Of a DNA stretch of 64,000 bases, positions 29,147-53,771 are shown in pieces; the first letter of the stretch is position 1; each line of letters begins with the position of its first letter. Position numbers and translations under genes: made by a program. The notes below the pieces were generated by a model. That model did not search any database. It was not told the origin of the DNA and saw only the letters and a list, made by a program, of their open reading frames with translations. Source of the stretch: Flavobacteriales bacterium (GTDB taxonomy: Bacteria > Bacteroidota > Bacteroidia > Flavobacteriales_D > Sanyastnellaceae); contig JBMYZL010000010.1 of assembly GCA_049610385.1 (NCBI GenBank), forward strand, positions 16,874-80,873. Direction: 5' to 3'.

Positions 29147-29229
29147 GGTTGGTGCCAAAATAGGCATACTTCATCAACTCTTTGCATTCCAAAAGGTTGC
29201 AAATTGCCACTTGAATTGGTTTTTGGACA

Positions 29230-31866: not shown

Positions 31867-32452
31867 AATAATAGATGCGCACTTGCGCAGTGTCATTCAA
31901 AAAATCGATGCGGCCTATATCAAAACGATTGATTTTGAGACCAGTCCGGGATTCCAAGTCCGTATGCATTTCTTCAGCGCGCTCGGGAACGATCAAGTCA
32001 ATGCGCTCGTAGATGACTGTCTTGCGGGTTTCGTGTTTGAGTAACCACAAATACTCAAGACCAAAGGTCATGGCGACCACAACGGCATTGATCAAAAGTG
32101 TCTCTGCGACACTGATTCGGTTGGCAGCCAAGGCATTGACAACGGAAATTCCGATGACAATGAACAGGTAGGTCATCTCTTTGATGTCGATGGCATTTGT
32201 TCGGTAGCGGATGATTCCGAAAATCGCAAACAGCCCCAAGCCCATGCCCGTATCGATGTCCAGCTTTTTCAATCCAAAACACAAGAAAAATGTCACCAAA
32301 CCGATGAGGTAATAGGTGAACAAGTAATCTTTGCGTTTGGTCTTGGGATAATAGAGGAAACGCACGATGACGGTCATGAAAACCAAATTGGCAATCAGCC
32401 TTGCGAGCAACTTGTAAAAGTCACCGTCCATCCACGTGATTTCAAATGGCAT
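31823..32452 (-). CDS. DUF4956-family multi-TM protein
   Basis: Four or five TM helices, the conserved-looking FGIIRYRTNAIDIKEMTYLF, and a soluble C-terminal domain of about 70 aa. It immediately follows (11-nt overlap) a VTC-domain gene, the standard pairing for DUF4956. Confidence 0.65.
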   Translation of the reverse strand: MPFEITWMDGDFYKLLARLIANLVFMTVIVRFLYYPKTKRKDYLFTYYLIGLVTFFLCFGLKKLDIDTGMGLGLFAIFGIIRYRTNAIDIKEMTYLFIVIGISVVNALAANRISVAETLLINAVVVAMTFGLEYLWLLKHETRKTVIYERIDLIVPERAEEMHTDLESRTGLKINRFDIGRIDFLNDTAQVRIYYYDDDQAFSDYHKSE

Positions 32453-33230
32453 TTTTCTTCAGTTTAGAAAGTTTACGGCGTTTGGCCTTGAATCGATTGG
32501 CCTTGAGGCCGTCTTGTGTATCCACGAGACCCATGCAGTATTTGCTGATTCGTTCTGGACGAATCTGGGATGCTTTCGCCCATCGGGCAAAAGGTGACCT
32601 GCGATTGATGCCAGATTGTTTCAATTCGGCAATGCAAACGCCAGACCACTGGGTCAGTTCCAGTTCGCTCGATTGCGTCCCGAGGCTGGGCGTTGCCACT
32701 TCAATGTTCCAATCCAATGTGAGGCGTTCTGTGTGTTCGTGGTTCACCAGTGTGATGCGATCAAATCGGTTGAACAGGGAAGGATGCAGGCTCAAAGGAC
32801 TCACCTCTTGTTCCGCAATGAAGCGAAGCTGGGAATCATCGAAATGGGGGGCCAATTGAGGCAGTCTCAATCTCCTTTTATCGGTGAGACCTTTCCGTTT
32901 CAATTTGACCTCCAAAAACACCAAGCCCGAATCCACATAAGATCGTTTCCGGACTTTGTGCCGTCGAACTTTTCGGCTGTGGTGAGCAAAGTAAAGTTGG
33001 TGATTTGGATGATCGTAATACAGGGTTTCATATCGAGAACTCCGACGGTTGTCTACAGATAGCACCGCATAATGTGCATCGAGCAATTGAAGGGCTTGAA
33101 GCAACTGAGCTGCTGACAACAGGTATTTGGTGTCTTTGCGTCGGAGCAATTCCACACTGTCCATTTCTTCGAGAGAAATGGCTGAGTAGCGGTCCAGGAC
33201 TTCTGGGAACGAATCTGACAGGTCGATCAT
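32442..33230 (-). CDS. VTC-domain protein (CYTH/triphosphate-tunnel, 'polyphosphate polymerase domain-containing protein')
   Basis: LRRKDTKYLL, RYETLYYD, a basic HHSRKVRRHKVRKRSY stretch, VFLEVKLKRKG and ICIAELK fit the charged beta-tunnel strands of VTC/CYTH domains. About 260 aa, with no TM. Confidence 0.7.
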   Translation of the reverse strand: MIDLSDSFPEVLDRYSAISLEEMDSVELLRRKDTKYLLSAAQLLQALQLLDAHYAVLSVDNRRSSRYETLYYDHPNHQLYFAHHSRKVRRHKVRKRSYVDSGLVFLEVKLKRKGLTDKRRLRLPQLAPHFDDSQLRFIAEQEVSPLSLHPSLFNRFDRITLVNHEHTERLTLDWNIEVATPSLGTQSSELELTQWSGVCIAELKQSGINRRSPFARWAKASQIRPERISKYCMGLVDTQDGLKANRFKAKRRKLSKLKKNAI

Positions 33231-33280: not shown

Positions 33281-36200
33281 ATGATTCGATTATCCTTTTC
33301 GCTTTTGCTCATTGGGGCTTTTGTCCTCCCGATTTGGAGCCAAACCGTCCCCCAGACTCCCTATGGATTCGCCACTTCAGACCCGGACTGGGTTCGGCTG
33401 ATGTACGAGGCGGTTGCAAATGGAGATAAGTCTGAGACCACCTTGGAAGCCGTCCGGGAGGCTTATGCCCATTTTCATTCGAATCATCCCTTTGAGAAAA
33501 CACGGCATACGCAGTTCTACAAGCGTTGGGTGCGGCAATCGGACTTGAAGGGTCACCGTCGAGATGTGCTTGGAGGTGTTGCCAATCGTTTGTCAGGGGC
33601 ATGGTCTGAGCTTGGACCCTGGCATTACGATCCGGAGGTGGCCATGGACTTTCAGGTGCAGTCGCCAGGAGCATGCCATGTGTACACTGTGGACCAAGCG
33701 GCTTCGAATCACGAGGTGGTCTGGGCTGGAACGGCGACAGCGGGGGCATGGAAATCGACGGACCATGGCGCTCATTGGAATTTGATGACCCGGGAATTGC
33801 CCTTTGGAAGCGTATATGCCATTGCCATCCATCCAGAGGATCCTGATCGGGTCTGGATTGGTGAAGGAGATGGCCAATTGTGGAGAACCACAGATGGAGG
33901 AGATTCCTGGAGTGTATGCGGCGGCAGCGCATTTGGCAGCGTAGATCGGTGGTATCGAGACCTCAAGATTTGGCCAGATTCCTTGGGAGGGCATTTCTTG
34001 TTGGCAGCCACGAATTATGGAATGTGGCGCAGTGAAGATGGCGGGGAGACCATGGACTACATTGGAGCTGGGGAGTTTATGGAGTTAGAGGCCCATCCAG
34101 AGAACGCAGAGGTAATTTACACTGTGGAACTGGTGGGCAACAACACGGCGTTTCGAAAATCTTTGGATGGTGGCCAAACCTTCCTGACCGCATCAGAATC
34201 GGGAGGTTTGGGTTGGCCTACGACTCCAACGAGTGAGCATGAACAAAGACGCTGTGAGATTTCGGTGACTCCGGCGAATCCAAGTAAAATCATGGTGTTG
34301 GCCTCAGGCTCTACTCCGGAAGGCAGTGGTTTGTATGGCATTTATGTCAGCGATGATGAGGGAGCCACTTTCAGCCAGACCTGTTGCGGGGACGGACCCG
34401 GCGGACCTTGGGATGCAGAGAACAACCCGAACATCCTGGGTTGGTCCGGCGATGGCACGGGAGATGGAGGTCAGTTTTACTATGATTTGGCTTTGGGTTT
34501 GTCTCCCACGGATTCAGAGCGCGCATTTGCTGCGGGAATTAGCGTTTGGAGAAGTTTGAATGGTGGGGGCAATTGGAGTCTGAATGGCCATTGGGTCACA
34601 TGGTCTGGGGAATTCACGGCTGACCGCTACACCCATGCAGACGTTCATGACATCAAGTTTTTTGAGCGTTTGGATGGCACAGTGGACATGTGGGTGGCGT
34701 CGGATGGTGGACTTCACCATTCTGGAGATCAAGGGGATCACATGGAACCACGTATGTATGGCATTCAAGGCACTGATTTCTGGGGGTGGCAGGCAGGTTG
34801 GCGCAGCCCGGATGTCATGGTCGGGGGCACCTACCACAACGGCACATTGATTCGGAATGGGGACATTTACCACTGGGGAGCTGAAAGTGATACCGCAGGT
34901 GGTTGGCTAGCTGAGCTCGCGGGTGACAACTTCAGGGGTTTTGTCAACCCGGCGGATGCAACCCGAGGATACCACGATGGTGGGGCCTTCGAATTCAGTG
35001 ATGATCGTTGGACCCGGATTCAAGGATTGGCTTTTGACGGGGACAAGAAGCCCAACACAAGCTATTTCATCGGAGAATATGGAAATTTAGAATGGGACCC
35101 GAGATGTTCGAATTGCATGTACTCACCTGTTGGTAATTCACTGTGGTACAGTTCAAATGGGGGAGTCTCATGGATTGAATTGCACAACTTTGGTGGGGAC
35201 AAAATCATTTCCGTCAAGGTGAGTCCGCGCCATCCGGAGCGCATCTATGTTTCACACAAGAATACCGGATCCAATTGGCGGATTCATCGTTCTGATGATG
35301 GCGGGGAGAATTGGACGAATGTGTCGATGAATGTTGCAGAAAATGGCGGAAATTCCAACCGTCCGATTTACCTCGAAGTCGATGGGGACAACCCGGACCG
35401 GGTGTGGGCCATTCTCACAGGGAGTCAAAATGGACACAAAGTTTTCGAATCGCAGAATGCGGGGGAAAGCTGGCAGGACCTGACCACGCCAACGCTTGAA
35501 GACCAGCGCGTCATCAGCATTGCCCATCAACGGGGGACTTCAGGGGGGCTTTATTTGGGAACCTTGGGACAGGTGTATTTCCGGGATGATGTGTCCATGG
35601 ATTGGGCAATTGTGGGTACATCCGGTCTTCCTGTCCGGACGACCCATTTGTTTTTGCAGCCCAACTACTGCGATGGGACCTTGCGCAGCGCTGGAAACCG
35701 AGGGGTGCATGAGGTGGATTTTGTTCAGCCTTCAGCCGTCCGGTCTGGATTCATGGCAGATCGCTTGGAGGTGAATTTGGCCTCTCCCTGTGAGACCCCA
35801 CCCGTTCGCTTTTCAGAGGTGGCTGTCGCAGGTTGCGGCGACTTGACAGTTGAATGGTCATTCCCTGGAGGGACCCCGAACACCGCTGCCGGACCGGAAG
35901 TCTTGGTGCAGTATGACACGCCCGGGTCCTATGACGTGACTTGCACTGTGACGGATTCTGCCGGCAACCCAGATACGTGGACTTGGGCTGACATGATCCA
36001 GGTCGTAGATGATCCCGTGCTCCCGAGTGGTGGGTTCACGGAAGGATTTGATGGGACTCAATTTCCACCTGAAAATTGGCGGATGGAGACCCCGGGACAT
36101 CCTTGGGAACAGGCCTGGGATTTGTGGGATGCAGAGAATGGGGTTGCCCAATTCCCGAATTACTGGGTCGACACCGAAGGTGCCATGGATTTGCTCATCA

Positions 36201-36790
36201 CACCTGGTTTCAATCCCACGGGTTTGGACCAAGTCCGTTTTGATGTGACCTACCAAACCTATGGCGATTATGAAGATGGCCTTGCGCTTTGGGGCAAACC
36301 TTCTGGCGCCGATGATTGGACAACGCTTTGGTCAGCTGAAGGAAACAACTTGGCCGTTTCGGACTGCTACACTTGGTTTTGGTATGACACCGATGGAAGC
36401 CCTGCTTCAGAAACCCAAGTGGTTCCCTTGCCATTGGAATGGACGGAGGGGCAAGTGGCATGTTTGGAATTGGCATGGGTGAACATCGGAGATTATGGTA
36501 ACCACATTTGGCTTGACAACATTGAAGTGGGGCAGTCACAGGGGCTGCCTGCGTTCGATGAGCAATGGATGGTTTACCCCAATCCGAGTGGTGGAGAACG
36601 CATCACCGTGACTGCAAGGCCTGATGAGGTTGAATTGCTGGATGCCAAAGGACAGAGGGTGCGCATCTTTCAAAAGGAGAATATGGACGATGGTGGGTTG
36701 GAATTGAATGTCTCGGGCTTGCCCGGAGGCCTGTATTACCTGAGGGCAACTGGTTATCCTGTGCTCAAATATGTGAGGACGAATCCGTAA
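33281..36790 (+). CDS. Secreted BNR/Asp-box beta-propeller protein with PKD domain, choice-of-anchor-J-like domain and T9SS type-A C-terminal domain
   Basis: Signal peptide. Asp-boxes (KSTDHGAHW, RTTDGGDSW, RSEDGGETM, KSLDGGQTF, RSLNGGGNW, RSDDGGENW, SQNAGESW). PKD-like WSFPGGTPNTA...YDVTCTVTDSAGN. GFTEGFDGTQFPPENW. The tail is MVYPNPSGGERITV...GLYYLRA. Confidence 0.75.
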   Translation: MIRLSFSLLLIGAFVLPIWSQTVPQTPYGFATSDPDWVRLMYEAVANGDKSETTLEAVREAYAHFHSNHPFEKTRHTQFYKRWVRQSDLKGHRRDVLGGVANRLSGAWSELGPWHYDPEVAMDFQVQSPGACHVYTVDQAASNHEVVWAGTATAGAWKSTDHGAHWNLMTRELPFGSVYAIAIHPEDPDRVWIGEGDGQLWRTTDGGDSWSVCGGSAFGSVDRWYRDLKIWPDSLGGHFLLAATNYGMWRSEDGGETMDYIGAGEFMELEAHPENAEVIYTVELVGNNTAFRKSLDGGQTFLTASESGGLGWPTTPTSEHEQRRCEISVTPANPSKIMVLASGSTPEGSGLYGIYVSDDEGATFSQTCCGDGPGGPWDAENNPNILGWSGDGTGDGGQFYYDLALGLSPTDSERAFAAGISVWRSLNGGGNWSLNGHWVTWSGEFTADRYTHADVHDIKFFERLDGTVDMWVASDGGLHHSGDQGDHMEPRMYGIQGTDFWGWQAGWRSPDVMVGGTYHNGTLIRNGDIYHWGAESDTAGGWLAELAGDNFRGFVNPADATRGYHDGGAFEFSDDRWTRIQGLAFDGDKKPNTSYFIGEYGNLEWDPRCSNCMYSPVGNSLWYSSNGGVSWIELHNFGGDKIISVKVSPRHPERIYVSHKNTGSNWRIHRSDDGGENWTNVSMNVAENGGNSNRPIYLEVDGDNPDRVWAILTGSQNGHKVFESQNAGESWQDLTTPTLEDQRVISIAHQRGTSGGLYLGTLGQVYFRDDVSMDWAIVGTSGLPVRTTHLFLQPNYCDGTLRSAGNRGVHEVDFVQPSAVRSGFMADRLEVNLASPCETPPVRFSEVAVAGCGDLTVEWSFPGGTPNTAAGPEVLVQYDTPGSYDVTCTVTDSAGNPDTWTWADMIQVVDDPVLPSGGFTEGFDGTQFPPENWRMETPGHPWEQAWDLWDAENGVAQFPNYWVDTEGAMDLLITPGFNPTGLDQVRFDVTYQTYGDYEDGLALWGKPSGADDWTTLWSAEGNNLAVSDCYTWFWYDTDGSPASETQVVPLPLEWTEGQVACLELAWVNIGDYGNHIWLDNIEVGQSQGLPAFDEQWMVYPNPSGGERITVTARPDEVELLDAKGQRVRIFQKENMDDGGLELNVSGLPGGLYYLRATGYPVLKYVRTNP

Positions 36791-37338: not shown

Positions 37339-37346
37339 TAAATTTG
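37339..37346 (+). promoter_or_regulatory. Exact -7 promoter box (TAAATTTG) abutting the start of the FAD oxidoreductase gene
   Basis: It matches TAnnTTTG. Its last G is the first base of the GTG at 37346, and the next in-frame GTG (37352) is 5 nt downstream, which implies a leaderless or near-leaderless transcript. Confidence 0.3.
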
Positions 37347-38620
37347 TGTTTGTGAAACGTCCTTTGGTGATCGGTGGAGGGATTGCTGGCCTGGTGGCTT
37401 GCATCGAGCTGGAACGACTGGGGCATGCTCCCATTTTGATTGAGAAGGAATCGGAATTGGGCGGGCGGTTGAAAACAGATTGGGTGGATGGGGTGCCCAT
37501 TGATCGTGGATTTCAAATTTTGCTGACGGCATACCCCGAGGTCAAACGATTGTTGGATGTGGATGCCTTGGACCCCATTTGGCTGGACAGCGCGGCGCGG
37601 GTTTTTCGCGCTTCAGGAGGCGCCCCTGTTTTGGTCGGGGACCCACGAAGGTGTTTTTCGGATTTGATGGCAACTTGGTCCAGTGGTCTGGTTTCAGGTA
37701 AGGACGCCTGGAACATGTGGCGCCATTTGCAGGGCATGAGAACCCCGAAGCGCGTCCGAAACTTGTTCGCGGAGAAAACCACCCAGCGCACGACAGCTGA
37801 AATGCTTGAAAGCAAGGGCTATTCAGTTGAGCTCGTGGATGAATTTTTTCGGCCCTTTTTTGGAGGCATCTTTTTGGACAGGAGCCTGACGGTGCCCGAG
37901 AGCATGTTCAATTTTGTTTTGAGCATGTTTGCGACAGGCCGGGCCATTTTGCCACGTCAAGGCATGGCTGCAGTCGTCAATCAGCTCCAGTCGAAACTTC
38001 AACGGACAGATATTCGATTGGGTGCTCAGGTCGGTTGGGTAGATGAGGATGGTCGGTGTGTCCGACTGGCAGCGGGCGAATCCTTTATGGGGGATGGGGT
38101 CATTCTGGCCACGCCAGGTTGGACCCGTTCCATCAAGGGTGAATGGATGAAGGATGACGCATTGGATTGGAACAGGACCGTGCGTTACGTTTGGTCATTG
38201 TCTGCCGATGTCAAAACCTTCAATCGCCCGCTGATCGGTTTGACCCCAGGATCTAAGCGCATCACCAACATGCACTTTTTCCGTGATTTGAATTCGAAAT
38301 GGCCTGACTGGGTGTCGGTTACAGCCGTGTCTGGAATGCACGACATTGTGGACATTGCGGATGATCACGAAATGCGCCAAGAATTCAAGTTGGGCACAGG
38401 AATTGTCGTCCGAGAAACCATTGCGATGCAGGACATTCCGATGGCCTTGCCACAGCTTCGGCATCCAGTCTATGAGCCAGCATTGGAATCCACATGGCTC
38501 TCCAACGGTGTCTTGAAAGCAGGTGATGATCGGTCGAATCCATCTTTTAACGGCGCTGCGAGATCGGGGGCCCAGGCTGCCATTGCCTTGCACAACAATT
38601 TGAATGCTCATGCGATGTAA
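37346..38620 (+). CDS. NAD(P)/FAD-dependent oxidoreductase (amine-oxidase / phytoene-desaturase-like)
   Basis: The N-terminal dinucleotide fold PLVIGGGIAGLVACIELERLGHAPILIEKESELGGRL (GxGxxG ... E ... GGR). About 420 aa. The true start may be the GTG at 37352. Confidence 0.75.
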   Translation: MFVKRPLVIGGGIAGLVACIELERLGHAPILIEKESELGGRLKTDWVDGVPIDRGFQILLTAYPEVKRLLDVDALDPIWLDSAARVFRASGGAPVLVGDPRRCFSDLMATWSSGLVSGKDAWNMWRHLQGMRTPKRVRNLFAEKTTQRTTAEMLESKGYSVELVDEFFRPFFGGIFLDRSLTVPESMFNFVLSMFATGRAILPRQGMAAVVNQLQSKLQRTDIRLGAQVGWVDEDGRCVRLAAGESFMGDGVILATPGWTRSIKGEWMKDDALDWNRTVRYVWSLSADVKTFNRPLIGLTPGSKRITNMHFFRDLNSKWPDWVSVTAVSGMHDIVDIADDHEMRQEFKLGTGIVVRETIAMQDIPMALPQLRHPVYEPALESTWLSNGVLKAGDDRSNPSFNGAARSGAQAAIALHNNLNAHAM

Positions 38621-41648: not shown

Positions 41649-42794
41649 TCAATGAACTGGAGTGCCGGTGATGTGCGCTGCGACATTGAAGAAATTTTCT
41701 TCTCCTTCTCGATAGGGTTGCGCTGTAGGGATGTGAATGGTGAGTTCGTGCCACCCTGAATCCAATTGCCCGATGTCGAATTGGCGTGGTGGTACATCAC
41801 TGCCTGGGCACCACCCAGATCGAGAATAATCACTGCTGGCAATTCGTTCTTGAATGCTATCACCGCGCCAAAAAGTCTTTTCAGTCCAAACTCCGGAACT
41901 CGGGTTGAATCGACGGAAGGATGCGCAATCTGTGCGCCAAGGTGTGAATCGACCCACTTCGATGGTATCCAACTTGATCATGTGCTCGCACGGGGTGAAT
42001 TCATCTCCAGTATGATGCCCCCCATGGCCCGTGGTCGTGAGAAAAAGACGAGTTTCCTCGAGGGCTTCATTCAAGTGGAATCGGGTGTGCACAGGACCAG
42101 CAGCAAACCCAGTATACGTTTCTTGGTTTTCAAAAAGTTTGGTTGTGTTGAGCAAGGGGATTGCCACATCTGCTTTTTTCGGATGCACTTCGGCTGTTGT
42201 CGGAAGCCAGTCCAATTGAACACAACAAGTGTGCCCTGCATCGCTCCATGTGTCGATGAAAATACCCAAATGGAAGGTCCCTTCCAGTTGAGGCAAAATG
42301 GCCGTAATATCTGAAGTCCAACGCACCGAATCCGCCCAATTTGGAATGTACACGGGGCGATATTCATCGAGCCTTTCTTCGTGTGAGAAATGTCCAACAC
42401 CAAAGGGCGTGATGAATCGAAGCAGTTCCAGGGCCGGTACATCTGGGGCGTCACCACGCGCCAATGATGCCCGGACTTCAGGCGCATCGGGCCAAACAGC
42501 GACCAATCCCGATTTGTCCCACGGATCACCGGCGGATCGCAAGGTCATTTGTATTTGGCAGGTCGGCTGTTGGTCATAAATCGGGCCTTCGAAGGATTTG
42601 ACACAAAGTCTGCCATTGTCCAAGCGTCTCCAACCGTCGTCATTGAAAAGAGAATCGCGGTTGGCATCCGGCTGAAAGGCCACCACCAATTCATCGGCCA
42701 CTTGCAAAGTGTGAGCTTGTTCATTTTTTACTTGGTGGTGACAACCGAAGCTCAGAATGGCCAGGACAGGGACAAGGACATTGAAGGGATGCAT
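41649..42794 (-). CDS. PNGase F-like protein (peptide-N4-(N-acetyl-beta-glucosaminyl)asparagine amidase F family) lipoprotein
   Basis: From the ATG at 42794 there is a signal peptide plus Cys (VLAILSFGC). Collinear matches to recalled Elizabethkingia PNGase F motifs: DPWDKSGLVAV (DEWDRYANVYV), LRFITPF (GRFITPY), FIDTWSDAGH...LDW (YTETWLAKG...DFD), TTTGHGGH (TISGWGH) and SRSGWCPG (DRAGWCPG). Confidence 0.6.
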   Translation of the reverse strand: MHPFNVLVPVLAILSFGCHHQVKNEQAHTLQVADELVVAFQPDANRDSLFNDDGWRRLDNGRLCVKSFEGPIYDQQPTCQIQMTLRSAGDPWDKSGLVAVWPDAPEVRASLARGDAPDVPALELLRFITPFGVGHFSHEERLDEYRPVYIPNWADSVRWTSDITAILPQLEGTFHLGIFIDTWSDAGHTCCVQLDWLPTTAEVHPKKADVAIPLLNTTKLFENQETYTGFAAGPVHTRFHLNEALEETRLFLTTTGHGGHHTGDEFTPCEHMIKLDTIEVGRFTPWRTDCASFRRFNPSSGVWTEKTFWRGDSIQERIASSDYSRSGWCPGSDVPPRQFDIGQLDSGWHELTIHIPTAQPYREGEENFFNVAAHITGTPVH

Positions 42795-42855
42795 CAGTGG
42801 CTCTATCGCTTTGTTGATGCCGAAAATTAGCGGACATTTGATATATCTTGCGCAC

Positions 42856-44136
42856 ATGAGAAAAATCTTGTTCCCAATTCGGGACGCTTTCTTGACGGCC
42901 CTTCTAGGTCTCGGGTTCTCGGAAGGTCAAGCGCAAAATGGATGCAATGGTGAACGTTACCGTTACACTTCGGCATTCCCTGAAATCGAAGTGTCATACG
43001 ACCATGTGTACGGTGGAAACATCAACGCACTGGGTTTGCAACAGGATTTGGTTTTCGATTTGTACACACCAGCAGACGACATCGCCGTAGATCGAGCTCT
43101 GGTTGTGGTGGCCCACGGAGGCTTTTTCTTGGCTGGCTCGAATGATGGTGCAGATGTGGTTTCAATCTGCGAAGATTTGGCCCACATGGGTTATGTCGTT
43201 GCCTCCATTTCTTATCGATTGGGTGTGGATGATTTGTTGGGCCTTCAGACCTCGATGATTGAGGCGGTTTGGCGGGGGGTTCACGATGCGCGAGCGGCTG
43301 TGCGATTTTTTCGGAAGTCTGTGGTTGAGGCGGACAATCCATACGGTATTGATCCCGAACGGATTTTAATGGGCGGGGTGTCTGCCGGTGGTTTCATTGC
43401 CTTGCATCATGCTTATGTCAACCAAGAAGATGAAATTCCAGACCAAATTGACCAGACCGCACCAGGCATGGGCGGTGGATTGGAAGGGGAGTCTGGAAAT
43501 CTGGGTTATGATTCTGATGTGATGGGCATCTTCAATATCGCAGGGGCCCTTCACACTGTGGACTGGATGGCTTCAGGAGATGTCCCGCTGGTGTCCGTGC
43601 ATGGCGATGCGGATCAAACCGTTCCCTATGGGACGGATATGCTTACCCTTACATTCATTCCGATCATTGAGGTGGATGGCTCGGCCACCATCCATTCAGC
43701 GGCAGAGAATTTGGGCATCGAAAACTGTCTGGTGACCCTGCCAGGTTTGGACCATGTGGCACATGTCGGCAATGCAATGGCTTATCAGCAAACTTTCTCG
43801 GCCATTGCAGGAGCGATGTCAGGATGGCTTTGCGCAGATTGGGAAATGACTTGTGAAACTTATGATTATACCAGCTCAATCCTTGAGTTTTCTTCCCTGT
43901 TGGATTGGCACTTGTACCCCAATCCGCTTCGGAGAGGGGAACTTTTGAAATGGGAGGGGGTGACTGGGGTTAATCGCATTCAATTGATGGATGCCACGGG
44001 ACGGACATTGTTCAATCGACCAACCCATGGGATGCAGTCTATCGTTTTGGATGTTCCCCCCGGAGTCTATTGGATGATGGCCCTGGACAGTCAAGGGCGC
44101 GCTTTGGGGCGTTCTGCACAAATCATGATTCAGTGA
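42856..44136 (+). CDS. Secreted alpha/beta-hydrolase (carboxylesterase/lipase type) with T9SS type-A C-terminal domain
   Basis: The ATG at 42856 gives a signal peptide (FLTALLGLGFSEGQAQ). The oxyanion HGGFFLAGS, the nucleophile elbow GGVSAGG and VHGDADQTV. The tail is HLYPNPLRRGELLKW...GVYWMMA...IMIQ. Confidence 0.7.
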   Translation: MRKILFPIRDAFLTALLGLGFSEGQAQNGCNGERYRYTSAFPEIEVSYDHVYGGNINALGLQQDLVFDLYTPADDIAVDRALVVVAHGGFFLAGSNDGADVVSICEDLAHMGYVVASISYRLGVDDLLGLQTSMIEAVWRGVHDARAAVRFFRKSVVEADNPYGIDPERILMGGVSAGGFIALHHAYVNQEDEIPDQIDQTAPGMGGGLEGESGNLGYDSDVMGIFNIAGALHTVDWMASGDVPLVSVHGDADQTVPYGTDMLTLTFIPIIEVDGSATIHSAAENLGIENCLVTLPGLDHVAHVGNAMAYQQTFSAIAGAMSGWLCADWEMTCETYDYTSSILEFSSLLDWHLYPNPLRRGELLKWEGVTGVNRIQLMDATGRTLFNRPTHGMQSIVLDVPPGVYWMMALDSQGRALGRSAQIMIQ

Positions 44137-45322
44137 AACCCTGATTACCTGGCAAGTGGAATGGGCAATTCTGAGGCGATGGCTTGAAATAACTTTGATG
44201 CAAATCTCCTGGGCCGGGTTGGTAGAAAAAATTGGTGTGCGTTTCGACGTGGTTGTCAAATTCCCTGTGAAATTGGGGAGTTTGGGGTGAAGACATGGGT
44301 GGATTGAGCCAAGACCAATCTCCCGTGACCGCCTTTCCCTTGTCCTGTTCGGCTTCACAAAATTTTTCGAATGCCCGCCCCAAGCCATGGTGGTCCCCCA
44401 AAGTCACTCCAGCGGCGTCGAAACTGTATAGGACAGCACGGTTGAGTTCGACCAAAGCCCGATCTCGCCACAGCGTTCGGTCGTTTCGTGTATCAAGGCC
44501 AATGATTTTTGCCATTCTTGGCAACAGATTGTATCGATTTTGATCCGCCAGATTTCTGGCGCCGATTTCAGTGCCCATGTAATATCCATTGAATGGGGCG
44601 CAAGGATAGACGATGCCTCCAATCTTCAGGGCGAGCTCAGACAGCAGAGGCAGGGCATACCATTTCCATTGTTCTTTTTGGACGTCGGGGTATTCGGGGT
44701 GTGCAATGGGTACTTCGTGCAAAAGTTCGGGGTGCTTCTGAAACACATCGAATGGAACCCCGGTTTCCCCGCGCCAGTGAATTTCCCATGGCAAAGGGGT
44801 GAAGGCGTCGCGGTTCTGGGGGTGCCAACCTCGTTGAATCACCCGATTTGTGAAGGATATCGTGGCTGGATCTCCAAGTTGCTCATCCTTGAACCCAGCA
44901 TAGCGAATCAGCTGATGATTTGCGATGCGAACTTCGTCTGGATTCCCAAGGTTGCGGGCAGGAAATATCGTGATGAAGCTGCGAATTTTCCCCCCATTGA
45001 AAGCCATTTGAATGTGTGAAATCAGATGGTCATGAACTTCTTCCACACTGTTGACATCGCGGGCATCTCGCACTTGTAATGAACGCCATACATGCCTTCC
45101 AATGCAGCGGTTGCTGTTCCTCCAAGCCAACTGGGCTCCATACTGCAATTCCTCAAAGGTATGGGTGTAAGTTCCGGTCGCCTTGATTTCTTTATTGACA
45201 GCCCTCATCCGCTCCGTGAATTGATTCTCATCCCGCAACCCCACAGCATTTCTTTCGTCCTCTGCGCACGCGCGGAAGAACGATTGGGCTTCTCTCCACA
45301 ACGATTCACTCATGACAGACAA
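44123..45322 (-). CDS. nos: Bacterial nitric oxide synthase, oxygenase domain only
   Basis: The haem-thiolate motif AWRNSNRCIGR (Cys codon at 45104-45106), the substrate-binding APFNGYYMGTEIGARNLAD, LWRDRALVELNRAVL, and the C-terminal TGDWSWLNPPMSSPQTPQFHREFDN...NFFYQ are collinear with Bacillus/Staphylococcus bNOS. No N-terminal Zn/pterin hook and no reductase domain. Confidence 0.85.
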   Translation of the reverse strand: MSVMSESLWREAQSFFRACAEDERNAVGLRDENQFTERMRAVNKEIKATGTYTHTFEELQYGAQLAWRNSNRCIGRHVWRSLQVRDARDVNSVEEVHDHLISHIQMAFNGGKIRSFITIFPARNLGNPDEVRIANHQLIRYAGFKDEQLGDPATISFTNRVIQRGWHPQNRDAFTPLPWEIHWRGETGVPFDVFQKHPELLHEVPIAHPEYPDVQKEQWKWYALPLLSELALKIGGIVYPCAPFNGYYMGTEIGARNLADQNRYNLLPRMAKIIGLDTRNDRTLWRDRALVELNRAVLYSFDAAGVTLGDHHGLGRAFEKFCEAEQDKGKAVTGDWSWLNPPMSSPQTPQFHREFDNHVETHTNFFYQPGPGDLHQSYFKPSPQNCPFHLPGNQGFTES

Positions 45323-45364
45323 ACGATTGATTCATGTGTTTTGTTCAGAGGAATCCGGCGTCAG

Positions 45365-48300
45365 TTATCGAAACATGTGGATGGCACCTGTCTTTTCGAG
45401 GCGCCTCCCGTCATGAAGCCGCAGAAGAATGAGGTATGAGTATACGCCATCCTCAGTGAAGAAATCGCCGTTCTGGTCGTTTCCAATCCAATGCTCGCCC
45501 AAGTCTTGCGATTTGAAAACAATTTGACCCCAGCGATTGAAAATCAAACATTCATATTGCAGAACTTCATCCGGTTCAAAGCCCGTTGGCACCGCTTGCC
45601 AGGCATCATTGACACCATCGTGATCAGGTGTGAAAGAGCTTGGAGCAAAGAAATCAATGGGGTCCACAAAAGGAATCATCCTGCAGGTGGTTGTTGCGCA
45701 TTCAATGGAATCGGTCACGGTCAGGCAGATCACCGCTGGATCGGTTGGAGCCGACAACAAATTGAGGGTCAAGTTGGGGTCTGTGCCCTCAATGTCAGAG
45801 CTTTCTTGAAATTGCCAAACCCAACTCACAAGCAACGAATCTTCAACTGACCACGTTGAAGTCGCATTCACCCAAGGTTCGTAGCGAGACGGATCCTCTG
45901 GCGAAATGGAAAAGCCGGAAGCGGGTGAAGGAGATCCGCATATACCAACGCTCTCTGAGATACCAACGCATCCCACTGTTGAAGTGACCGTCCTGTATAG
46001 TTCTCCGCATCCTGCGTCATGCAAGGTGAAGGTGGCCTCGGTCAATTCCGAAGATGGAATCACCACACCGGAAGGTTGTACAAAACTCCATGAAACGCTT
46101 TGTCCTCCAGTTCCTGTGGCTTCAAAGTTGTAAGGCACGCAACCCGTTACCGGAAACACTTCGAAGGAGGCATCTGGCAATGGATGGATGGTGATGTCCG
46201 CCTCAGTTGTGGATCCGCATTCACCAGTCAACACATATTGGACTGAATAGTCTCCAGGGGCAGCTACCATGAACGTTCCGGATGCATTGACACCATTGCC
46301 GCCGAACTGTCCCCCGGGTGTGTTGGGGGTGAATTGGATGGGCAGGTCATTCAAACAGGCCTCTGTGATGGGGGTGAACGCTGAGGATGGATTGGGAATG
46401 ACTTCAATCGAAGTGCTCTCTGAAGTGGGGCAATCGCCAAAGGTTTCGTAGAGCAAATCCCAAGTTCCAACACCAGCAGCGGAAGGATTGAAAGTATTTT
46501 CATCCAAACACCCTGAACATCCAGTTGAGCTCCAAACGCCATTGCTGACGGATGCTTGGAGATTGACCGCTGTAGCCCCAACACAAATGGGGTTCGGGTT
46601 CACCACGCCGAGGTCTGGAGTGAGTAGAATTTCGAAAGTCGTCGTCAAACTGGCCGGACAAGTCCCCGTACCGGTGTATGTGATCTCAACAGTTCCCTCA
46701 CCCGCAGCTGCAGGGTCGAATATGCCGCTGGACGAATCGAGGCAAACTGCGCACGATGCCGACCAATAACCTGACTCGAGATAATTTGTGGTGAATTCAA
46801 AGGGGTCAGATTCGGTGCACAAGTAGGAAGGAAGTCCCAACACCAGCGGGACAGGTTGAACCACTGTCATTTCAAATGAATCTGACACGGCTTCGCATCC
46901 ATCAACTTCACCGCTCAACACCCACCACCCCATGTCATCCAAGGTGACTCCTTCCCACGTGTCTCCTGGGCCAGCAGAAGTTTCTACACCGGCCGAGGTC
47001 CATGTCAAGTCTGCATTGTTGGGCAGTTGGGCAATGGGCTCAGGCAATGTCACTTCCGATCCTTCGCAGGCACTGAGGGAAGACTCAGTCAGTTCCAAGT
47101 CAAACGTCGGAGTGATGATCAATTCAAAATTCGCAGGGGCCGATATACAACCATCCAAATACGCCACAACTTGTCCCAGGCCACCATCCGCAAGAGAAAG
47201 GTTGGTGAGGGATGGATTGTTGTTGACTTCTGTCGTGCCATCTGGCCAAGTCCAGACCACAGAATCCATGCCCAATTCGGGATTGGCTTCGAAGGCAACA
47301 TCATCCCCTTCGCAGATGGGTGAATCCCATGCAGGTGACGGGGGCGCAGGCCCCTCGGCGATGTCCAAGAGAACGGTGTCAGGCTCAATCTCACAGCCTG
47401 CGGCATTCAGTCCATTCAGGATGTACATCCCGGTATTTTCAAGGGTTACATTGGGCAAAAAGAGGGTGTCTTCAGTGCTCACAACAGATCCGTCATGGGT
47501 CCACTCATACGTAGCGCCAGGAACCTCATTGGGGACAATTTGGATGGATTCCCCGACACAAATGTCTTCAGGATTTGACAAGGTGAGTTCGAATTCAGGT
47601 TCCGCAAAGTCGGAGAAGTAACCATATCGCCCATAGCTCCCTTGTTGACCAATCATCAAACCCAAATGAAAGGCGCCGGATGCGTTTGTCACTTGGGTGG
47701 CATTGCCTGTGATTACCCAGCTCGGATTGATGATCTGTGCGAACATCCATTCTCCATTTGAAGCAGGCACCACTGAAAAGTCGCCAGCCTGAAGGTTGTT
47801 CGGATTGCCATTGACGAGGAAATCACCTTCTGTCCCTGCTGGGGTCAGAACATTCAATCGAAAGTTGTCGTTGGTAGATCGGAAAAAAACGACCTCACCT
47901 GACCCCGTGCATTCGAGGGCGGGCAGCATCCCTCCACCCACTTCGCATCCGAATCCAGTCACTTGAAATATCAAAACGGGTTCAGTTGTTTCGATGTGAA
48001 GCGTTGGATCTAGGACTTGAAGTGACAGTGATTCGCCTGTATCCAAACTGCCCAATAAAGGCGTGCCGTTTTGGGTGATTCCTGTTCCATTTTGGGTGGC
48101 CAAGATGTAGATGCGTTCATTGGATGTCAGCCCCCCACGGATGGCAACGAATTCTGTCCCAGCCTCGGTGATGGGGGTGCACTGATCTCCAACCAAATCA
48201 AAACACAAGGTGCTGCCGGATGTCTGTTCAATGGAATCATCTGAGATGGTGATGGCGATGGGTGCTGAGCTGGTCACGGACGTGCCTGTCGGATGAGCTG

Positions 48301-48925
48301 GGCCCGACACCCCTGCCGATCGACAACCATAGGTTTCTCCAGCATTCAAAATCACGTCGAAGGGAACGCCCGCAGGGTGATTCAAGAGGTTGACACTTGG
48401 CGTGATGGTGATGACCGTATTGTCTTCCGTGGCCACGATGTCAAATGCCGATTTGGATTGCGGAAAATGATTGGGCAACTGATTTTGAAAGGGCAACAGG
48501 AATTCTGTGCCCAGGGCATTTTGGCCTTTCAGCACGAAAACGTCAGCATTCAAAGCATTGTCGATTTCGTAGTAGCAGGAAATATCCGAGGTGCTTGTGA
48601 TGTGGATTCCTTTCTGCAAAACCGAATTGGCAGGCTTGTTTTCCAATAGATCCAGAAAAGGTGTCAGGTCCAAACTCATGGCATCATTCGCCCCCAACCC
48701 CAATTCAATGGGCGCAAAAGTGGGGTCAGCAGGCAATTCAACCGAAACTTGAGCCGGTTCCTCACCTGAACTGAATCGCAGCATGATGGGGTCGTCTCCA
48801 TGTCCCGCCCAAACTTCAGGTGCAACGAACCAAAATGAATCGTCCAATTGTCCAAGAACCACTGACTGCCCCACCAACAAACAAGCTGCGGTGAGGAGTA
48901 CGCGATTAAAATGGGGACAATTCAT
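45365..48925 (-). CDS. Giant T9SS type-B cargo (adhesin-like, multiple Ig-like domains, gliding-motility-type C-terminal sorting domain)
   Basis: The ATG at 48925 (the ORF track uses a TTG at 48931) gives MNCPHFNRVLLTAACLLVGQSVVLGQ. A large beta-helix or IgGFc-binding-like N-terminal region (GTEFLLPF.., GTEFVAIRGG), then many Cys-bracketed Ig-like units. The C-terminus is FFAPSSFTPDHDGVNDAWQAV...YECLIFNRWGQIVFKS. Confidence 0.8.
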   Translation of the reverse strand: MNCPHFNRVLLTAACLLVGQSVVLGQLDDSFWFVAPEVWAGHGDDPIMLRFSSGEEPAQVSVELPADPTFAPIELGLGANDAMSLDLTPFLDLLENKPANSVLQKGIHITSTSDISCYYEIDNALNADVFVLKGQNALGTEFLLPFQNQLPNHFPQSKSAFDIVATEDNTVITITPSVNLLNHPAGVPFDVILNAGETYGCRSAGVSGPAHPTGTSVTSSAPIAITISDDSIEQTSGSTLCFDLVGDQCTPITEAGTEFVAIRGGLTSNERIYILATQNGTGITQNGTPLLGSLDTGESLSLQVLDPTLHIETTEPVLIFQVTGFGCEVGGGMLPALECTGSGEVVFFRSTNDNFRLNVLTPAGTEGDFLVNGNPNNLQAGDFSVVPASNGEWMFAQIINPSWVITGNATQVTNASGAFHLGLMIGQQGSYGRYGYFSDFAEPEFELTLSNPEDICVGESIQIVPNEVPGATYEWTHDGSVVSTEDTLFLPNVTLENTGMYILNGLNAAGCEIEPDTVLLDIAEGPAPPSPAWDSPICEGDDVAFEANPELGMDSVVWTWPDGTTEVNNNPSLTNLSLADGGLGQVVAYLDGCISAPANFELIITPTFDLELTESSLSACEGSEVTLPEPIAQLPNNADLTWTSAGVETSAGPGDTWEGVTLDDMGWWVLSGEVDGCEAVSDSFEMTVVQPVPLVLGLPSYLCTESDPFEFTTNYLESGYWSASCAVCLDSSSGIFDPAAAGEGTVEITYTGTGTCPASLTTTFEILLTPDLGVVNPNPICVGATAVNLQASVSNGVWSSTGCSGCLDENTFNPSAAGVGTWDLLYETFGDCPTSESTSIEVIPNPSSAFTPITEACLNDLPIQFTPNTPGGQFGGNGVNASGTFMVAAPGDYSVQYVLTGECGSTTEADITIHPLPDASFEVFPVTGCVPYNFEATGTGGQSVSWSFVQPSGVVIPSSELTEATFTLHDAGCGELYRTVTSTVGCVGISESVGICGSPSPASGFSISPEDPSRYEPWVNATSTWSVEDSLLVSWVWQFQESSDIEGTDPNLTLNLLSAPTDPAVICLTVTDSIECATTTCRMIPFVDPIDFFAPSSFTPDHDGVNDAWQAVPTGFEPDEVLQYECLIFNRWGQIVFKSQDLGEHWIGNDQNGDFFTEDGVYSYLILLRLHDGRRLEKTGAIHMFR

Positions 48926-49511
48926 ATACAAATGAAATCAAAATTGAGGATTCACCAGGAGAATGTTTTCTGTTCGAAAACAAACGCAGATGTGAAGCAT
49001 CACAAACAGAATTTACCGGTTTTTTCAGCTCATTTCATTGATGAGTACGACACCACTGCAAACCAGAAAACAACTGGCTTCGGAATTGGGTTGCACGGTG
49101 CGTTCCACCTGATGAATCCAAATTTCTTATCCAGTTGCTCCGAACACAAAAACATCCAATCACTCCGATTCCCGTGGAACGATGTGCAAGTTAGCTCAGG
49201 ATAAACAAAATCAGGGTTTGCATAGCCATCCAGATGGGAAGAGACAGCAGTCCATTTGGGCGGGCTTCATGTTGCATTGGAATCGCGACAACAGTTTTTG
49301 CACATTGGGATGATGCCGCTGTCAAAACGAACACGTTTGAAAATCGTTCGGAAAAGCCTGTGTTTTGGTCGGCTATCAGATGTGTCTGAGCATTTGGAGG
49401 TCAAGTCAGGCGAGATGAAGAAGATGTTCATGGAGACGCTGGATTTTTGTGATTGATGTTGCCTTGATGATGATCGGCCATCTGTGGGTTCAATAGTGGT
49501 TAAATTGCGAC

Positions 49512-50282
49512 ATGAATGTTTTGGAGGGTTTCGGCTTCGTTTTGGTTTTGTCGGGATTCGTGATTGGATGCAGGTTTGAGCCTTCTGAGGATTCGGTGTC
49601 AAATTCCCCTCCGGCCTTCGACGATACACAGGAGTCGACATGGACATTGCAACCAGGTTGGGGCCTTGAATTGAACGCCCCTTGTTCCATCGACTTTTGG
49701 GCAAATGATGAAGAGATGGGGCATTTTTATTTGGTCCGTACTTCTGAAGGCAAGTTCATCACGGCACCCGGTTTTCCTGAAACATGGAGGCGGGCAAGAC
49801 GAACAGGAAAACCTCGGGCGGGCATTCATGCGTTTGTTTTGGGTGAGCCTGCCATTGAGCAGGCCATTTGGTTTCTTTCCCACACATCGAGTGATGATTG
49901 GGGGGAACTGCCGCCTGTTTTGGATTTGGAGTCCTTGTGGGTGGAGAATGGCATGAGCACAAAAGCCTGTGAAAGAGAATGGCTTCGATGGCTTCGGCGT
50001 GTGGAAGCCGTGATGGATTGCCGCCCGATACTGAAAATGGGTTCGGAATTTGCCAACCGCCACATTCAAGACACCTTGTTCAATCGATATCCACTTTGGT
50101 TGAGTGACTGGAGCTCAGAACTTCAGAATGTACCAAAAATATGGGAGGAGACAGGTTGGACTTTTGCATCAGCACCTCCCTTGGAAAAGGGGCAGATAAG
50201 CCCGGATGGTGGGCAACCCGTTCTGTGCCGTGCCACACCCAATTTCCCCTTTGTACAACCCTCTTCTCCTGCACATGAATGA
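49512..50282 (+). CDS. GH25-like (lysozyme/muramidase-fold) lipoprotein, divergent
   Basis: Lipobox (FVIGC). Collinear GH25-like motifs: SIDFW, HFYLVRTSEG, GIHAF, AIEQAIWF, LPPVLDLE and YPLWLSDW. The first catalytic-region motif is GLELN rather than the usual G-I-D-V-S, so activity is uncertain. Confidence 0.5.
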   Translation: MNVLEGFGFVLVLSGFVIGCRFEPSEDSVSNSPPAFDDTQESTWTLQPGWGLELNAPCSIDFWANDEEMGHFYLVRTSEGKFITAPGFPETWRRARRTGKPRAGIHAFVLGEPAIEQAIWFLSHTSSDDWGELPPVLDLESLWVENGMSTKACEREWLRWLRRVEAVMDCRPILKMGSEFANRHIQDTLFNRYPLWLSDWSSELQNVPKIWEETGWTFASAPPLEKGQISPDGGQPVLCRATPNFPFVQPSSPAHE

Positions 50283-50865
50283 AGTCTATGAACAAACTGT
50301 GACCTCATGGTCATCGGTTGTTGGCCAACCTCCGGGGACGCGATTTGAATCTTGTATCCTGCGTGATTTTTCAGCCCGCGAAGTTTCAGGAGGTGAGAGG
50401 AGAGGGACATTCGCCACGTTTCGATTTGAAGATTGTCGATTTGAGTCATGTGATTTGAGCAATGTTCCGATCAATGGAACTCACTTTCGGGATGTTTCAT
50501 TTGCCGATTGTAAGCTCGCTGGCTTGCGCTGGGATACAGCGGCATCCATGGGTTTTGCCTGCGTTTGGAGCCGTTGCAAGATGCCTTACTCGGTCTGGGA
50601 AGGGATGGACCTGCGATCATGTCGGTTTGATGAGGTGGATTTGACTGAGTCCGACTTTGGCCAAACCCAATGTCAAAAAATGGATTTTCATCATTGCAAC
50701 TTGATGGGTGCCCGATGGGCAGGAGCTCATTGCGATGAGGTCGATTTTACCACAGCCATTTCGGTTTCCATGAACCCCGTGGAAACGTCTCTCAAACGGG
50801 CAAAATTCCGGCCGGATCAATTGGGCAGTTTGCTCGCCCATTGGGGCATCGAAGTCTCGACTTGA
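50275..50865 (+). CDS. Pentapeptide-repeat protein
   Basis: The ATG at 50275 overlaps the upstream stop (ATGAATGA). Long runs of the A(D/N)LXX-type pentapeptide periodicity (FEDCRFESCDLSNVPINGTHFRDVSFADCKLAGLRW; CRFDEVDLTESDFGQTQCQKMDFHHCNLMGARWAGAHCDEVDF). Confidence 0.7.
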   Translation: MNEVYEQTVTSWSSVVGQPPGTRFESCILRDFSAREVSGGERRGTFATFRFEDCRFESCDLSNVPINGTHFRDVSFADCKLAGLRWDTAASMGFACVWSRCKMPYSVWEGMDLRSCRFDEVDLTESDFGQTQCQKMDFHHCNLMGARWAGAHCDEVDFTTAISVSMNPVETSLKRAKFRPDQLGSLLAHWGIEVST

Positions 50866-53470: not shown

Positions 53471-53746
53471 TCAACCGCTGGGCTTCGTGCCTGTGGCCAC
53501 GGATGTTGCGGACGGATTTTGTGGGTGATGGCTGCAGGATTTTCGCAAACGTCGAAAAGCGATGTTGTGAATCTGTCGGGTGCTGAGTGGATCTCCTGCA
53601 TGGTTTTGGAATTCTTGTAGTGCCTCATCGATGACATCACTTCCCGCGCCTGCGGCTTCCAATGAGGCACGCAGTTTTTCAGGGAGAAAAATTTCCACTT
53701 GGCCGTTAGACTTGATCAATTTTGCCGGTTTGGCGAAATCAATCAT
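53471..53746 (-). CDS. Stand-alone ATP-cone domain protein
   Basis: From the ATG at 53746, the sequence LIKSNGQVEIFLPEKLRASLEAAGAGSDVIDEALQEFQNHAGDPLSTRQIHNIAFRRL fits the ATP-cone pattern (K..G..E.F...K...SL...G.......). About 91 aa. It is divergent from the large fusion gene. Confidence 0.55.
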   Translation of the reverse strand: MIDFAKPAKLIKSNGQVEIFLPEKLRASLEAAGAGSDVIDEALQEFQNHAGDPLSTRQIHNIAFRRLRKSCSHHPQNPSATSVATGTKPSG

Positions 53747-53758
53747 TTGGCAAAGGAC

Positions 53759-53766
53759 TAACTTTG
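53759..53766 (+). promoter_or_regulatory. Exact -7 promoter box (TAACTTTG) 5 nt upstream of the ATG of the large fusion gene
   Basis: It matches TAnnTTTG and sits inside the 25-bp space between the divergent start codons at 53746 (-) and 53772 (+). Confidence 0.3.
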
Positions 53767-53771
53767 TTTGG

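Follow-up and report, generated by a model that had tools for sequence, protein, structure and literature searches.

The 64,000-nucleotide stretch of Flavobacteriales DNA analysed here, called the window in the following, carries on its reverse strand a gene for a nitric oxide synthase (NOS) oxygenase. The gene is located between an upstream gene for an adhesin-like protein with a sorting domain of the type IX secretion system (T9SS) and a convergent esterase gene (Table 1). An earlier note on this DNA had singled out two substitutions near the haem pocket of the NOS and an extension at its C-terminus. As will be argued below, the two pocket substitutions matter less than the extension, which contains a Cys-Pro motif that, by sequence comparison, is the most strongly conserved lineage-specific feature of the protein. 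This conserved C-terminal motif is what is new here. A limited search of the open-access literature returned nothing relevant on a Cys-Pro or haem-regulatory tail in NOS, although a prior description is still possible.

Gene start, domain content and fold

The NOS reading frame has two possible starts. In its longer reading it covers 44123..45322 on the minus strand, with a TTG start and 399 aa, while an ATG is found three codons downstream, at position 45313. The ATG is the more likely start, because the homologues with 99% and 87% identity are also called as 396 aa, and the residue numbers used below are counted from this codon (Met1).

In the 396-aa protein, a Pfam scan finds PF02898 (NO_synthase) alone, at aa 5-370 with an E-value of 3.4e-131 and covering positions 2-359 of the 362 in the profile. 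The same scan detects no fused reductase, globin, EF-hand or cyclic-nucleotide-binding (cNMP) domain, and no NCBIfam model matches the protein. The best solved relatives are the NOS enzymes of Bacillus subtilis (bsNOS) and Geobacillus (E ~1e-107), followed by the mammalian oxygenase domains (~1e-90). For bsNOS entry 1m7z, the E-value is 2e-107 and the identity 46-47%. The AlphaFold2 (AF2) model, calculated with 88 homologues as input, has a mean predicted local distance difference test score (pLDDT) of 91.7, and Foldseek superimposes it on bsNOS with a TM-score of 0.95 and a root-mean-square deviation (rmsd) of 1.7 Å, i.e. the fold is that of a NOS oxygenase. The stand-alone NOS oxygenase proposed in the earlier note is thus borne out by the sole PF02898 match, the similarity to bsNOS and the TM-score. 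All of the motifs quoted there (AWRNSNRCIGR, FNGYYMGTEIGARNLAD, WYALPLL, TGDWSWLNPP and NFFYQ) were also located. Judged from its sequence, the protein is a genuine and intact stand-alone NOS oxygenase of the bacterial type.

Table 1. Positions of the NOS gene, its neighbours and the residues discussed in the text (window coordinates; residues numbered from Met1).
Feature	Residues	Position	Strand	bsNOS equivalent	Description
Convergent esterase		42856..44136	+		alpha/beta-hydrolase, weak T9SS type A tail, 426 aa
NOS oxygenase CDS		44123..45313	-		396 aa; stop codon 44123-44125
T9SS adhesin-like neighbour		45365..48931	-		upstream; 1188 aa; IgGFc_binding + CHU_C
Haem-thiolate loop AWRNSNRCIGR	63-73	45095..45127	-		contains proximal W64 and thiolate C70
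W64	64			W60	proximal Trp
C70	70			C66	haem thiolate
H74	74	45092-45094	-	Leu	4 residues past the thiolate Cys (CIGRH)
H133	133			H128	bacterial-type His
Q134, Y245, E249	134, 245, 249			Q129, Y239, E243	substrate binding
L224 codon	224	44642..44644	-	I218	distal-pocket NO-release gate
Y244 codon	244	44582..44584	-	W238	mouse iNOS W366 position in FNGWYMG
Substrate loop GTEIGARNLAD	247-257	44543..44575	-		contains substrate Glu E249 and pterin/propionate Arg R253
R253, N254	253, 254			R247, N248	pterin/propionate Arg; bacterial-type Asn
C319	319	44357-44359	-	not Cys	helix before pterin lariat; 118/120 in clade
W333, W335, F348	333, 335, 348			W327, W329, F342	pterin binding
H359	359	44237-44239	-	not in bsNOS	one-residue insertion before NFFYQ; 118/120 in clade
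Y364	364			Y357	haem propionate contact
Low-complexity linker PGPGDLHQSYFKPSPQN	366-382	44168..44218	-		between core and motif
Cys-Pro motif C383-P384-F385-H386-L387	383-387	44153..44167	-		candidate haem-regulatory motif
Post-motif extension PGNQGFTES	388-396	44126..44152	-		closest relatives only
Tail peptide KPSPQNCPFHLPG					contains the candidate motif

Active-site residues and comparison with known NOS types

The protein was aligned to the bsNOS chain. The numbering was checked on H128, E243, R247, W329 and Y357, and it also matched the names of the PDB mutants H128S, I218V and Y357F. Apart from the two substituted sites, all haem, substrate and pterin contacts of bsNOS were found to be conserved (Table 1). 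Two samples were used to put the individual positions in perspective, namely the 120 best homologues (48-99% identity), called the clade, and 149 sequences that each represent one 50%-identity cluster, drawn from the NOS family as a whole; at this threshold the query clade collapses into one cluster. C70 is invariant in 120/120 homologues, and E249 and R253 are likewise invariant in the clade.

From these sequence features we consider it almost certain that the protein is a catalytically competent bacterial NOS (bNOS). It would operate as a functional, cytoplasmic stand-alone enzyme, a haem-thiolate dimer like bsNOS, that converts L-arginine via N-hydroxy-arginine into nitric oxide (NO) and citrulline. 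Its cofactor would be a pterin or folate, and the electrons would be provided by non-dedicated flavodoxin/reductase systems of the cell.

The similarity to bsNOS (PDB 1M7V/1M7Z) and to Geobacillus stearothermophilus NOS (2FLQ) extends over the whole core, with 46-48% identity, TM-scores of 0.94-0.95 and rmsd values of 1.6-1.8 Å. Like the window protein, these enzymes consist of one oxygenase domain with the same start point and have no N-terminal hook or Zn motif. The alignment begins at bsNOS residue 5, and the window protein starts five residues before this position; it has no N-terminal extension, and the mammalian-type C-x4-C zinc motif is absent from it. Also shared with bsNOS are the equivalents of H128 and N248, a bulky gate residue, all haem, arginine and pterin residues, and the lack of a dedicated reductase gene. 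The differences are the Tyr in place of W238, the Leu in place of I218, and the residues H74, C319 and H359; in addition, the chains of the Bacillus and Geobacillus enzymes stop within a few residues of the YQ, whereas the tail of the window protein bears CPFHL. The oxygenase domains of mammalian nNOS, eNOS and iNOS have the same fold and catalytic residues (40-42% identity, TM ~0.85). However, they have a Val gate, a Trp at the W366 position and an N-terminal Zn/hook region, and the YQ is followed by a calmodulin linker and the reductase, where the window protein has its Cys-Pro tail.

H74 is present in 118/120 clade sequences, while a His at this position occurs in only 2/149 family representatives. 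W176, R279 and P237 are further clade-conserved residues that differ from bsNOS. H74, C319 and H359 could be part of a site for docking of the tail or for binding of a metal, a point to which we return below.

The two pocket substitutions

The positions that the earlier note had assigned to the Tyr and the Leu are confirmed by the alignment, in which Y244 corresponds to W238 and L224 to I218. The substitutions are, however, not a peculiarity of the window protein but typical of its lineage. In the clade, the Trp site is occupied by Trp in 55, Phe in 31, Tyr in 22 and His in 12 sequences, and the gate by Leu in 93 and Ile in 27 (n=120). The corresponding numbers for the 149 family representatives are W116/F23/Y3/H2 with 5 others at the Trp site, and V82/I58/L8 with 1 other at the gate; the nNOS-like representative P0144, for instance, has A-V at the gate segment and Trp at the Trp site. 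By these counts, the Leu gate is a hallmark of the query clade, and natural variants with another aromatic residue in place of the Trp are common.

A co-variation of Tyr and Leu, which had been suggested as a check, was observed in one direction only. Within the clade, Tyr, Phe and His at the Trp site always occur together with a Leu gate, so that Tyr is never found without Leu, yet Leu pairs also with Trp, Phe and His, and Trp occurs with either Leu or Ile. A specific Tyr/Leu coupling was thus rejected, and the pattern fits plain phylogeny.

The gate residue is Val in mammalian NOS, and the switch from Val to Ile slows the release of NO in bacterial NOS. The Trp of FNGWYMG meets the guanidinium group of the substrate via its backbone carbonyl. 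This contact is kept in the window protein, and a Tyr should therefore be tolerated at this position. We expect, by inference from these roles, that Leu224 behaves like the bacterial Ile, i.e. with slow NO release, and that Tyr244 has little effect.

One can also argue that Tyr244 and Leu224 together result in a substrate handling or NO release clearly unlike those of the characterised bNOS enzymes, the tail being incidental. The Leu gate is indeed rare outside the clade (8/149) and dominant within it (93/120), the Val/Ile switch at the gate is established to tune NO release, and structures of the bsNOS I218V mutant exist. However, Leu and Ile are both bulky aliphatic residues, so only a modest change is to be expected, and the Trp site varies freely between W, F, Y and H among close relatives with otherwise identical pockets, which argues against a strong functional constraint or novelty. 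In addition, neither pocket site comes close to the tail motif in conservation. We therefore regard this explanation as distinctly unlikely. The pocket sites nevertheless provide a natural series (W/F/Y/H and L/I) that is usable for studying the gating of NO release.

The C-terminal tail in the query clade

The tail comprises 31 aa past the conserved YQ, compared to 5 aa in bsNOS. The length of about 30 residues given in the earlier note is thus correct, but the description as a plain extension is not, since the tail contains a conserved CP[FY]H[LI] motif. After NFFYQ, which ends at Q365, the order is PGPGDLHQSYFKPSPQN-CPFHL-PGNQGFTES.

To quantify the conservation, 121 clade sequences were considered, with each tail shuffled as a control. 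C-P-[FYW] is present in 120/121 of the tails, against a mean of 18.7 and at most 35 after shuffling. The motif follows the consensus [G/K/R]-C-P-[F/Y]-[H/G/S]-[L/F/I], in which Cys and Pro are conserved to 100%, F/Y to 99%, His to 72% and L/F/I to 90%. The linker from Q365 to the Cys varies between 7 and 38 aa across the clade and is rich in P/A/S/K/E/G, a disorder-like composition, and most of the homologues end 3-4 aa past the Cys-Pro dipeptide. The motif is carried by all named loci from Flavobacteriales and Bacteroidota metagenome-assembled genomes (MAGs). It is very probable that the motif is functional, in the sense of being under selection.

This conservation has to be set against the possibility that the open reading frame is a decaying or non-functional NOS remnant whose tail results from read-through, for which one could cite the fact that the end of the gene overlaps the convergent esterase gene by 14 nt. 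The catalytic residues are, however, all intact, and the tail motif is kept in all but one of the homologues. Moreover, the comparison with the 87% relative gives 108 synonymous and 53 non-synonymous codon differences, the codon of Cys383 differing synonymously, and the reading frame has the same length in the relatives. The codon differences indicate a gene under purifying selection, and the remnant explanation, which these observations refute, is left with practically no probability.

One sub-clade, in which the two pocket sites are Trp and Ile (the Flavobacteriales MAGs L005 and L006, P0054-P0057 and related sequences), has a longer tail. It includes a second, Cys-less copy of the motif, of the form DP[FY]HL, and several His residues, followed by CP[FY]GFD and a C-terminal extension of basic character. 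A duplication or elaboration of the tail in this sub-clade is suggested by these sequences.

The tail motif across the wider NOS family

The same C-terminal device recurs in other bacterial NOS lineages. Among the other cluster representatives (n=149), a Cys-Pro followed by a hydrophobic residue is found in the tail of 23 of the 85 proteins with a C-terminal NOS domain, or 23/58 if only tails of 8 aa or more are counted. By shuffling, 0.9 would be expected for the 23/85, with a maximum of 5 in 2000 shuffles. The 23 representatives fall into 11 separate sequence clusters, and the motif is present in only 1/57 proteins with further domains after the NOS domain. No solved NOS structure aligns past query residue 375.

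Of the 23, twelve have other domains fused to the N-terminal side of the NOS domain. Pfam scans of six of the twelve show BFD-like [2Fe-2S] together with FAD- and/or NAD-binding reductase domains in four, the [2Fe-2S] domain only in one, and EF-hands only in another. The architecture in question is that of the self-sufficient NOS of the Sorangium cellulosum type, with an N-terminal [2Fe-2S]/FAD/NAD reductase and a C-terminal oxygenase. Proteins of this type are the closest relatives outside the query clade among the cluster representatives (~44-48% identity), and many of them end in a CPF[H] tail as the window protein does. The latter, unlike the self-sufficient NOS of the Sorangium type (or of cyanobacteria and eukaryotes), has no fused reductase or globin. 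Since the motif occurs in NOS proteins that are already self-sufficient by virtue of their [2Fe-2S]/FAD/NAD fusion, it is not a tag for recruiting a reductase, and this option was ruled out.

Some of the reductase-fused proteins (P0131, P0151 and P0138) have N-terminal pairs of EF-hands or two cyclic-nucleotide-binding domains preceding the [2Fe-2S]/FAD/NAD module, and retain the CPF tail. These sequences suggest that Ca2+- or cNMP-regulated bacterial NOS exist.

The tail as a candidate haem-regulatory motif

A haem-regulatory motif is defined by a Cys-Pro dipeptide, a hydrophobic residue after it and, in many cases, a neighbouring His, all within a flexible segment. The sequence C383-P384-F385-H386-L387 has the residues of such a motif, and by analogy with IRP2, Irr and haem oxygenase-2 (HO-2) the tail is most likely a tethered motif of this kind. 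The motif of Irr reportedly reads GCPWHD, likewise Cys-Pro-aromatic-His. The pentapeptide CPFHL of mammalian IRP2 is identical to the one in the window protein, and the IRP2 peptide TPILCPFHL binds haem with a Kd of ~0.8 uM, its spectrum having one band at 368 nm for five-coordinate Cys and another at 415 nm for His (PMC10377097, Table 1). A bacterial precedent is provided by Irr of Bradyrhizobium, in which Cys29-Pro30 binds haem and triggers oxidative degradation (PMC4700492). The Cys-Pro motifs of HO-2 are, as in the window protein, located in the C-terminal tail of a haem enzyme; they bind haem via the cysteine, often with a distal histidine, and contribute to haem transfer and loading to the catalytic centre (PMC8808069). 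There is no homology between these proteins and the NOS tail beyond the short motif, and the NOS motif differs in being at the extreme C-terminus of a haem-thiolate oxygenase.

In the mechanism proposed here, the tail would be a functional module in which a flexible linker tethers a Cys-Pro-aromatic-His-aliphatic motif, and Cys383, together with His386, would reversibly bind a second haem. This haem could be loaded into the catalytic site, as for the C-terminal motifs of HO-2. Alternatively, the stability or activity of the enzyme might be coupled through the tail to haem, redox or NO status, with IRP2 and Irr as the models. All of these functions are inferred from the conservation and recurrence of the motif and from the analogies. 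That the tail works by binding haem is plausible on this basis, although we would place it somewhat short of an even prospect.

Several points weigh against this proposal. The His is replaced in the CP[FY]GFD and CPFSS sub-clade tails, and a Cys/His ligand switching can therefore not be universal. Cys-Pro dipeptides occur in non-haem contexts too, and the identity of CPFHL with the IRP2 sequence could be a convergence on a short motif without shared function. The motif pLDDT of 75 in the AF2 model could equally fit a structural latch instead of a free haem-binding arm. It should also be kept in mind that NO synthesis is a sequence-based prediction for every member of this NOS clade.

Placement of the tail and rival mechanisms

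Tyr357 of bsNOS touches the haem propionate beside the pterin pocket. As the core ends at the equivalent Y364 and the linkers of some lineages have only 1-7 aa, the motif is held near the haem-propionate/pterin edge. In the AF2 model, the pLDDT is ~55 for aa 371-380, rises to ~75 over aa 381-390 and falls to ~41 over aa 391-396; H386 forms an isolated beta-bridge. As a control, a model of the protein cut at residue 370, i.e. without the tail, was calculated. According to the DSSP strings, each of the strands 227-231 and 360-364 gains one residue in the model that includes the tail, and the mean pLDDT of the substrate loop (aa 241-250, FNGYYMGTEI) is higher in this model (90) than in the tail-less one (79). 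Isolated beta-bridges at residues 330 and 353 are present in the tail-less model and not in the full-length one. Taken as hints, the differences point to packing of the motif against the sheet flanking the distal pocket, but they may be noise.

These results leave room for a different function of the tail, namely as a structural latch or a metal (Zn/Fe) site that does not bind haem. Here, the open pterin/haem-propionate side of the dimer would be clamped by Cys383 and His386, possibly with C319, H359, H74 or the partner subunit, and the latch would stand in for two elements missing from bacterial NOS, the N-terminal hook and the ZnS4 site. The end of the core by the haem propionate and pterin pocket, the short linkers that keep the motif near, the pLDDT of ~75 with the beta-bridge at H386, and the longer strands and higher loop pLDDT with the tail are all in line with such a role, as are the extra clade-conserved residues H74, C319 and H359, which are not in bsNOS. 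On the other hand, the invariant part of the motif is Cys-Pro-aromatic rather than four metal ligands, and the His is not retained in the sub-clades with CPFSS or CP[FY]GFD, nor in many further lineages. C319 and the tail do not co-occur across the cluster representatives, so that C319 can be dismissed as an obligatory partner of the tail Cys, and the changes between the two AF2 runs may, as noted, be noise. We consider the latch or metal site to be a serious rival of the haem-regulatory reading, albeit an unlikely one.

A weaker rival is that the tail Cys is a redox or NO relay, working by S-nitrosation or as a persulfide/disulfide switch, e.g. with C319, which would capture NO+ equivalents made at the haem or turn the enzyme off under oxidative conditions. 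A single invariant Cys on a flexible arm anchored by the haem edge would be suited for this, C319 is present in almost all of the clade sequences (118/120), and titles in the reference list of PMC8808069 describe a thiol/disulfide switch formed by the Cys-Pro motifs of HO-2. However, C319 is uncoupled from the tail outside the clade, and a simple thiol switch leaves the strict conservation of the Pro and the aromatic residue unexplained, which makes the relay improbable, more so than the latch.

With these rivals weighed, we see the prospects as evenly balanced for the complete picture, in which the protein is a functional bNOS with lineage-typical pocket variants and with its tail acting as a haem-regulatory motif. 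A broader generalisation, put forward here tentatively, is that many bacterial NOS, stand-alone and reductase-fused, carry an unrecognised tethered haem-regulatory motif beside the haem-propionate/pterin edge, which would capture free haem and either pass it on to the catalytic site or let the activity and stability of the enzyme respond to haem, redox conditions or the NO that it makes. To our knowledge, the biochemistry and structures of bacterial NOS all come from Firmicutes, Deinococcus, actinomycetes, Sorangium and one cyanobacterium, and we know of no report of a Cys-Pro tail for any of these enzymes. If the tail does bind haem, a haem-thiolate enzyme would provide a new case of cofactor loading that is self-regulated, or of haem/NO feedback, and a textbook enzyme family would have a built-in device for cofactor loading or feedback.

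Distribution

A search of the NOS family at E<=1e-20 gives more than 6,000 clusters at 90% identity. Several of these are already named nitric oxide synthase (oxygenase) by NCBI or JGI, in MAGs of Bacteroidota, Flavobacteriales and Coraliomargaritaceae (Verrucomicrobiota). The nearest species-representative genomes are marine Flavobacteriales MAGs with 51-57% identity, in addition to one partial match of 67%. The survey proposed in the earlier note thus shows that, in sequence data, NOS is not rare in Bacteroidota but abundant in Bacteroidota MAGs and already annotated. The window protein is an ordinary, intact bNOS of a large, already annotated and uncharacterised environmental clade. By these data, this clade with its Cys-Pro-aromatic-His C-terminal motif would be very large; among its members are marine Flavobacteriales and other Bacteroidota, as well as at least one Verrucomicrobiota MAG. 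The limited search of the open-access literature gave nothing relevant on bacterial NOS in Bacteroidota or Flavobacteria; in a 2018 phylogeny, the NOS of Spirosoma linguale groups with the globin-type cyanobacterial NOS. The Bacteroidota context that had been assumed for the window is supported by T9SS type A and type B sorting domains and by the Flavobacteriales MAGs as nearest genomes.

Gene neighbourhood

The same-strand adhesin-like gene upstream of the NOS gene is as described earlier, including the distance of 42 nt, which applies to the TTG start and becomes 51 nt for the ATG. The spacer has no match to a sigma-70-type promoter, an intrinsic terminator or the Bacteroidota TAnnTTTG box, and from the sequence, co-transcription of the two genes is possible. 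On the other side, the open reading frame of the esterase opens at 42757, its likely start being the ATG listed in Table 1, as in the gene call of a relative. The tail-to-tail overlap of 14 nt (44123-44136) is real and the same in the 87% relative, and it exists only in relatives with 87-99% identity. The 3' end of the segment coding for PGNQGFTES and the NOS stop codon lie inside the esterase gene.

These genes are part of a syntenic block at 41649-50865 with a GH25 lysozyme, (a pentapeptide-repeat protein), the adhesin, the NOS, the esterase, a PNGase F and a monomeric isocitrate dehydrogenase. The order is kept in metagenomic relatives with 64-99% NOS identity (compared with L009-L014). In relatives with 51-55% identity the neighbours differ, with PurT-like and RmuC genes in one, and a carbonic anhydrase and a metallo-beta-lactamase-fold protein in another. 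The adhesin adjacency is thus absent there, and the adhesin was rejected as a conserved operon partner. As the order is kept only among close relatives, the link between the two genes reflects shared ancestry and not function.

Redox partners were surveyed with Pfam on nearly all large open reading frames of the window. In agreement with the earlier note, no flavodoxin, ferredoxin or diflavin reductase was found near the NOS gene. bNOS enzymes use non-dedicated cellular reductases, and the lack of a linked redox partner is normal for them. Three other candidates for a dedicated partner, an amine-oxidase-like flavoprotein (37346-38620), an HI0933-like flavoprotein (13491-14681) and a nitroreductase (62211-63056), were discarded, being distant from the NOS gene and not conserved neighbours.

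Other features of the window

No tRNA genes or Rfam matches were found in the 64,000 nt. Loci at 19785-20927 (-) and 31823-33230 (-) were noted for a di-haem cytochrome c peroxidase (CCP_MauG) and a VTC-domain/DUF4956 gene pair; the CCP_MauG gene is ~23 kb from the NOS gene, and no link to the NOS is established. The window is rich in genes for T9SS cargo proteins, which bear sorting domains of type A (Por_Secre_tail) or type B (CHU_C) and are encoded at 6202-7899, 26306-29167, 33281-36790, 42757-44136, 45365-48931 and 63061-63957. Examples are Sortilin/BNR proteins, a protein with an ALK/LTK glycine-rich domain and a multicopper oxidase fragment at the window edge. Finally, the gene at 53580-58472 (+) encodes a 1630-aa protein of unusual architecture, which combines a transglutaminase core, a membrane domain of the 7TM_transglut type, a sugar-transfer-associated ATP-grasp domain and a long array of tetratricopeptide repeats.

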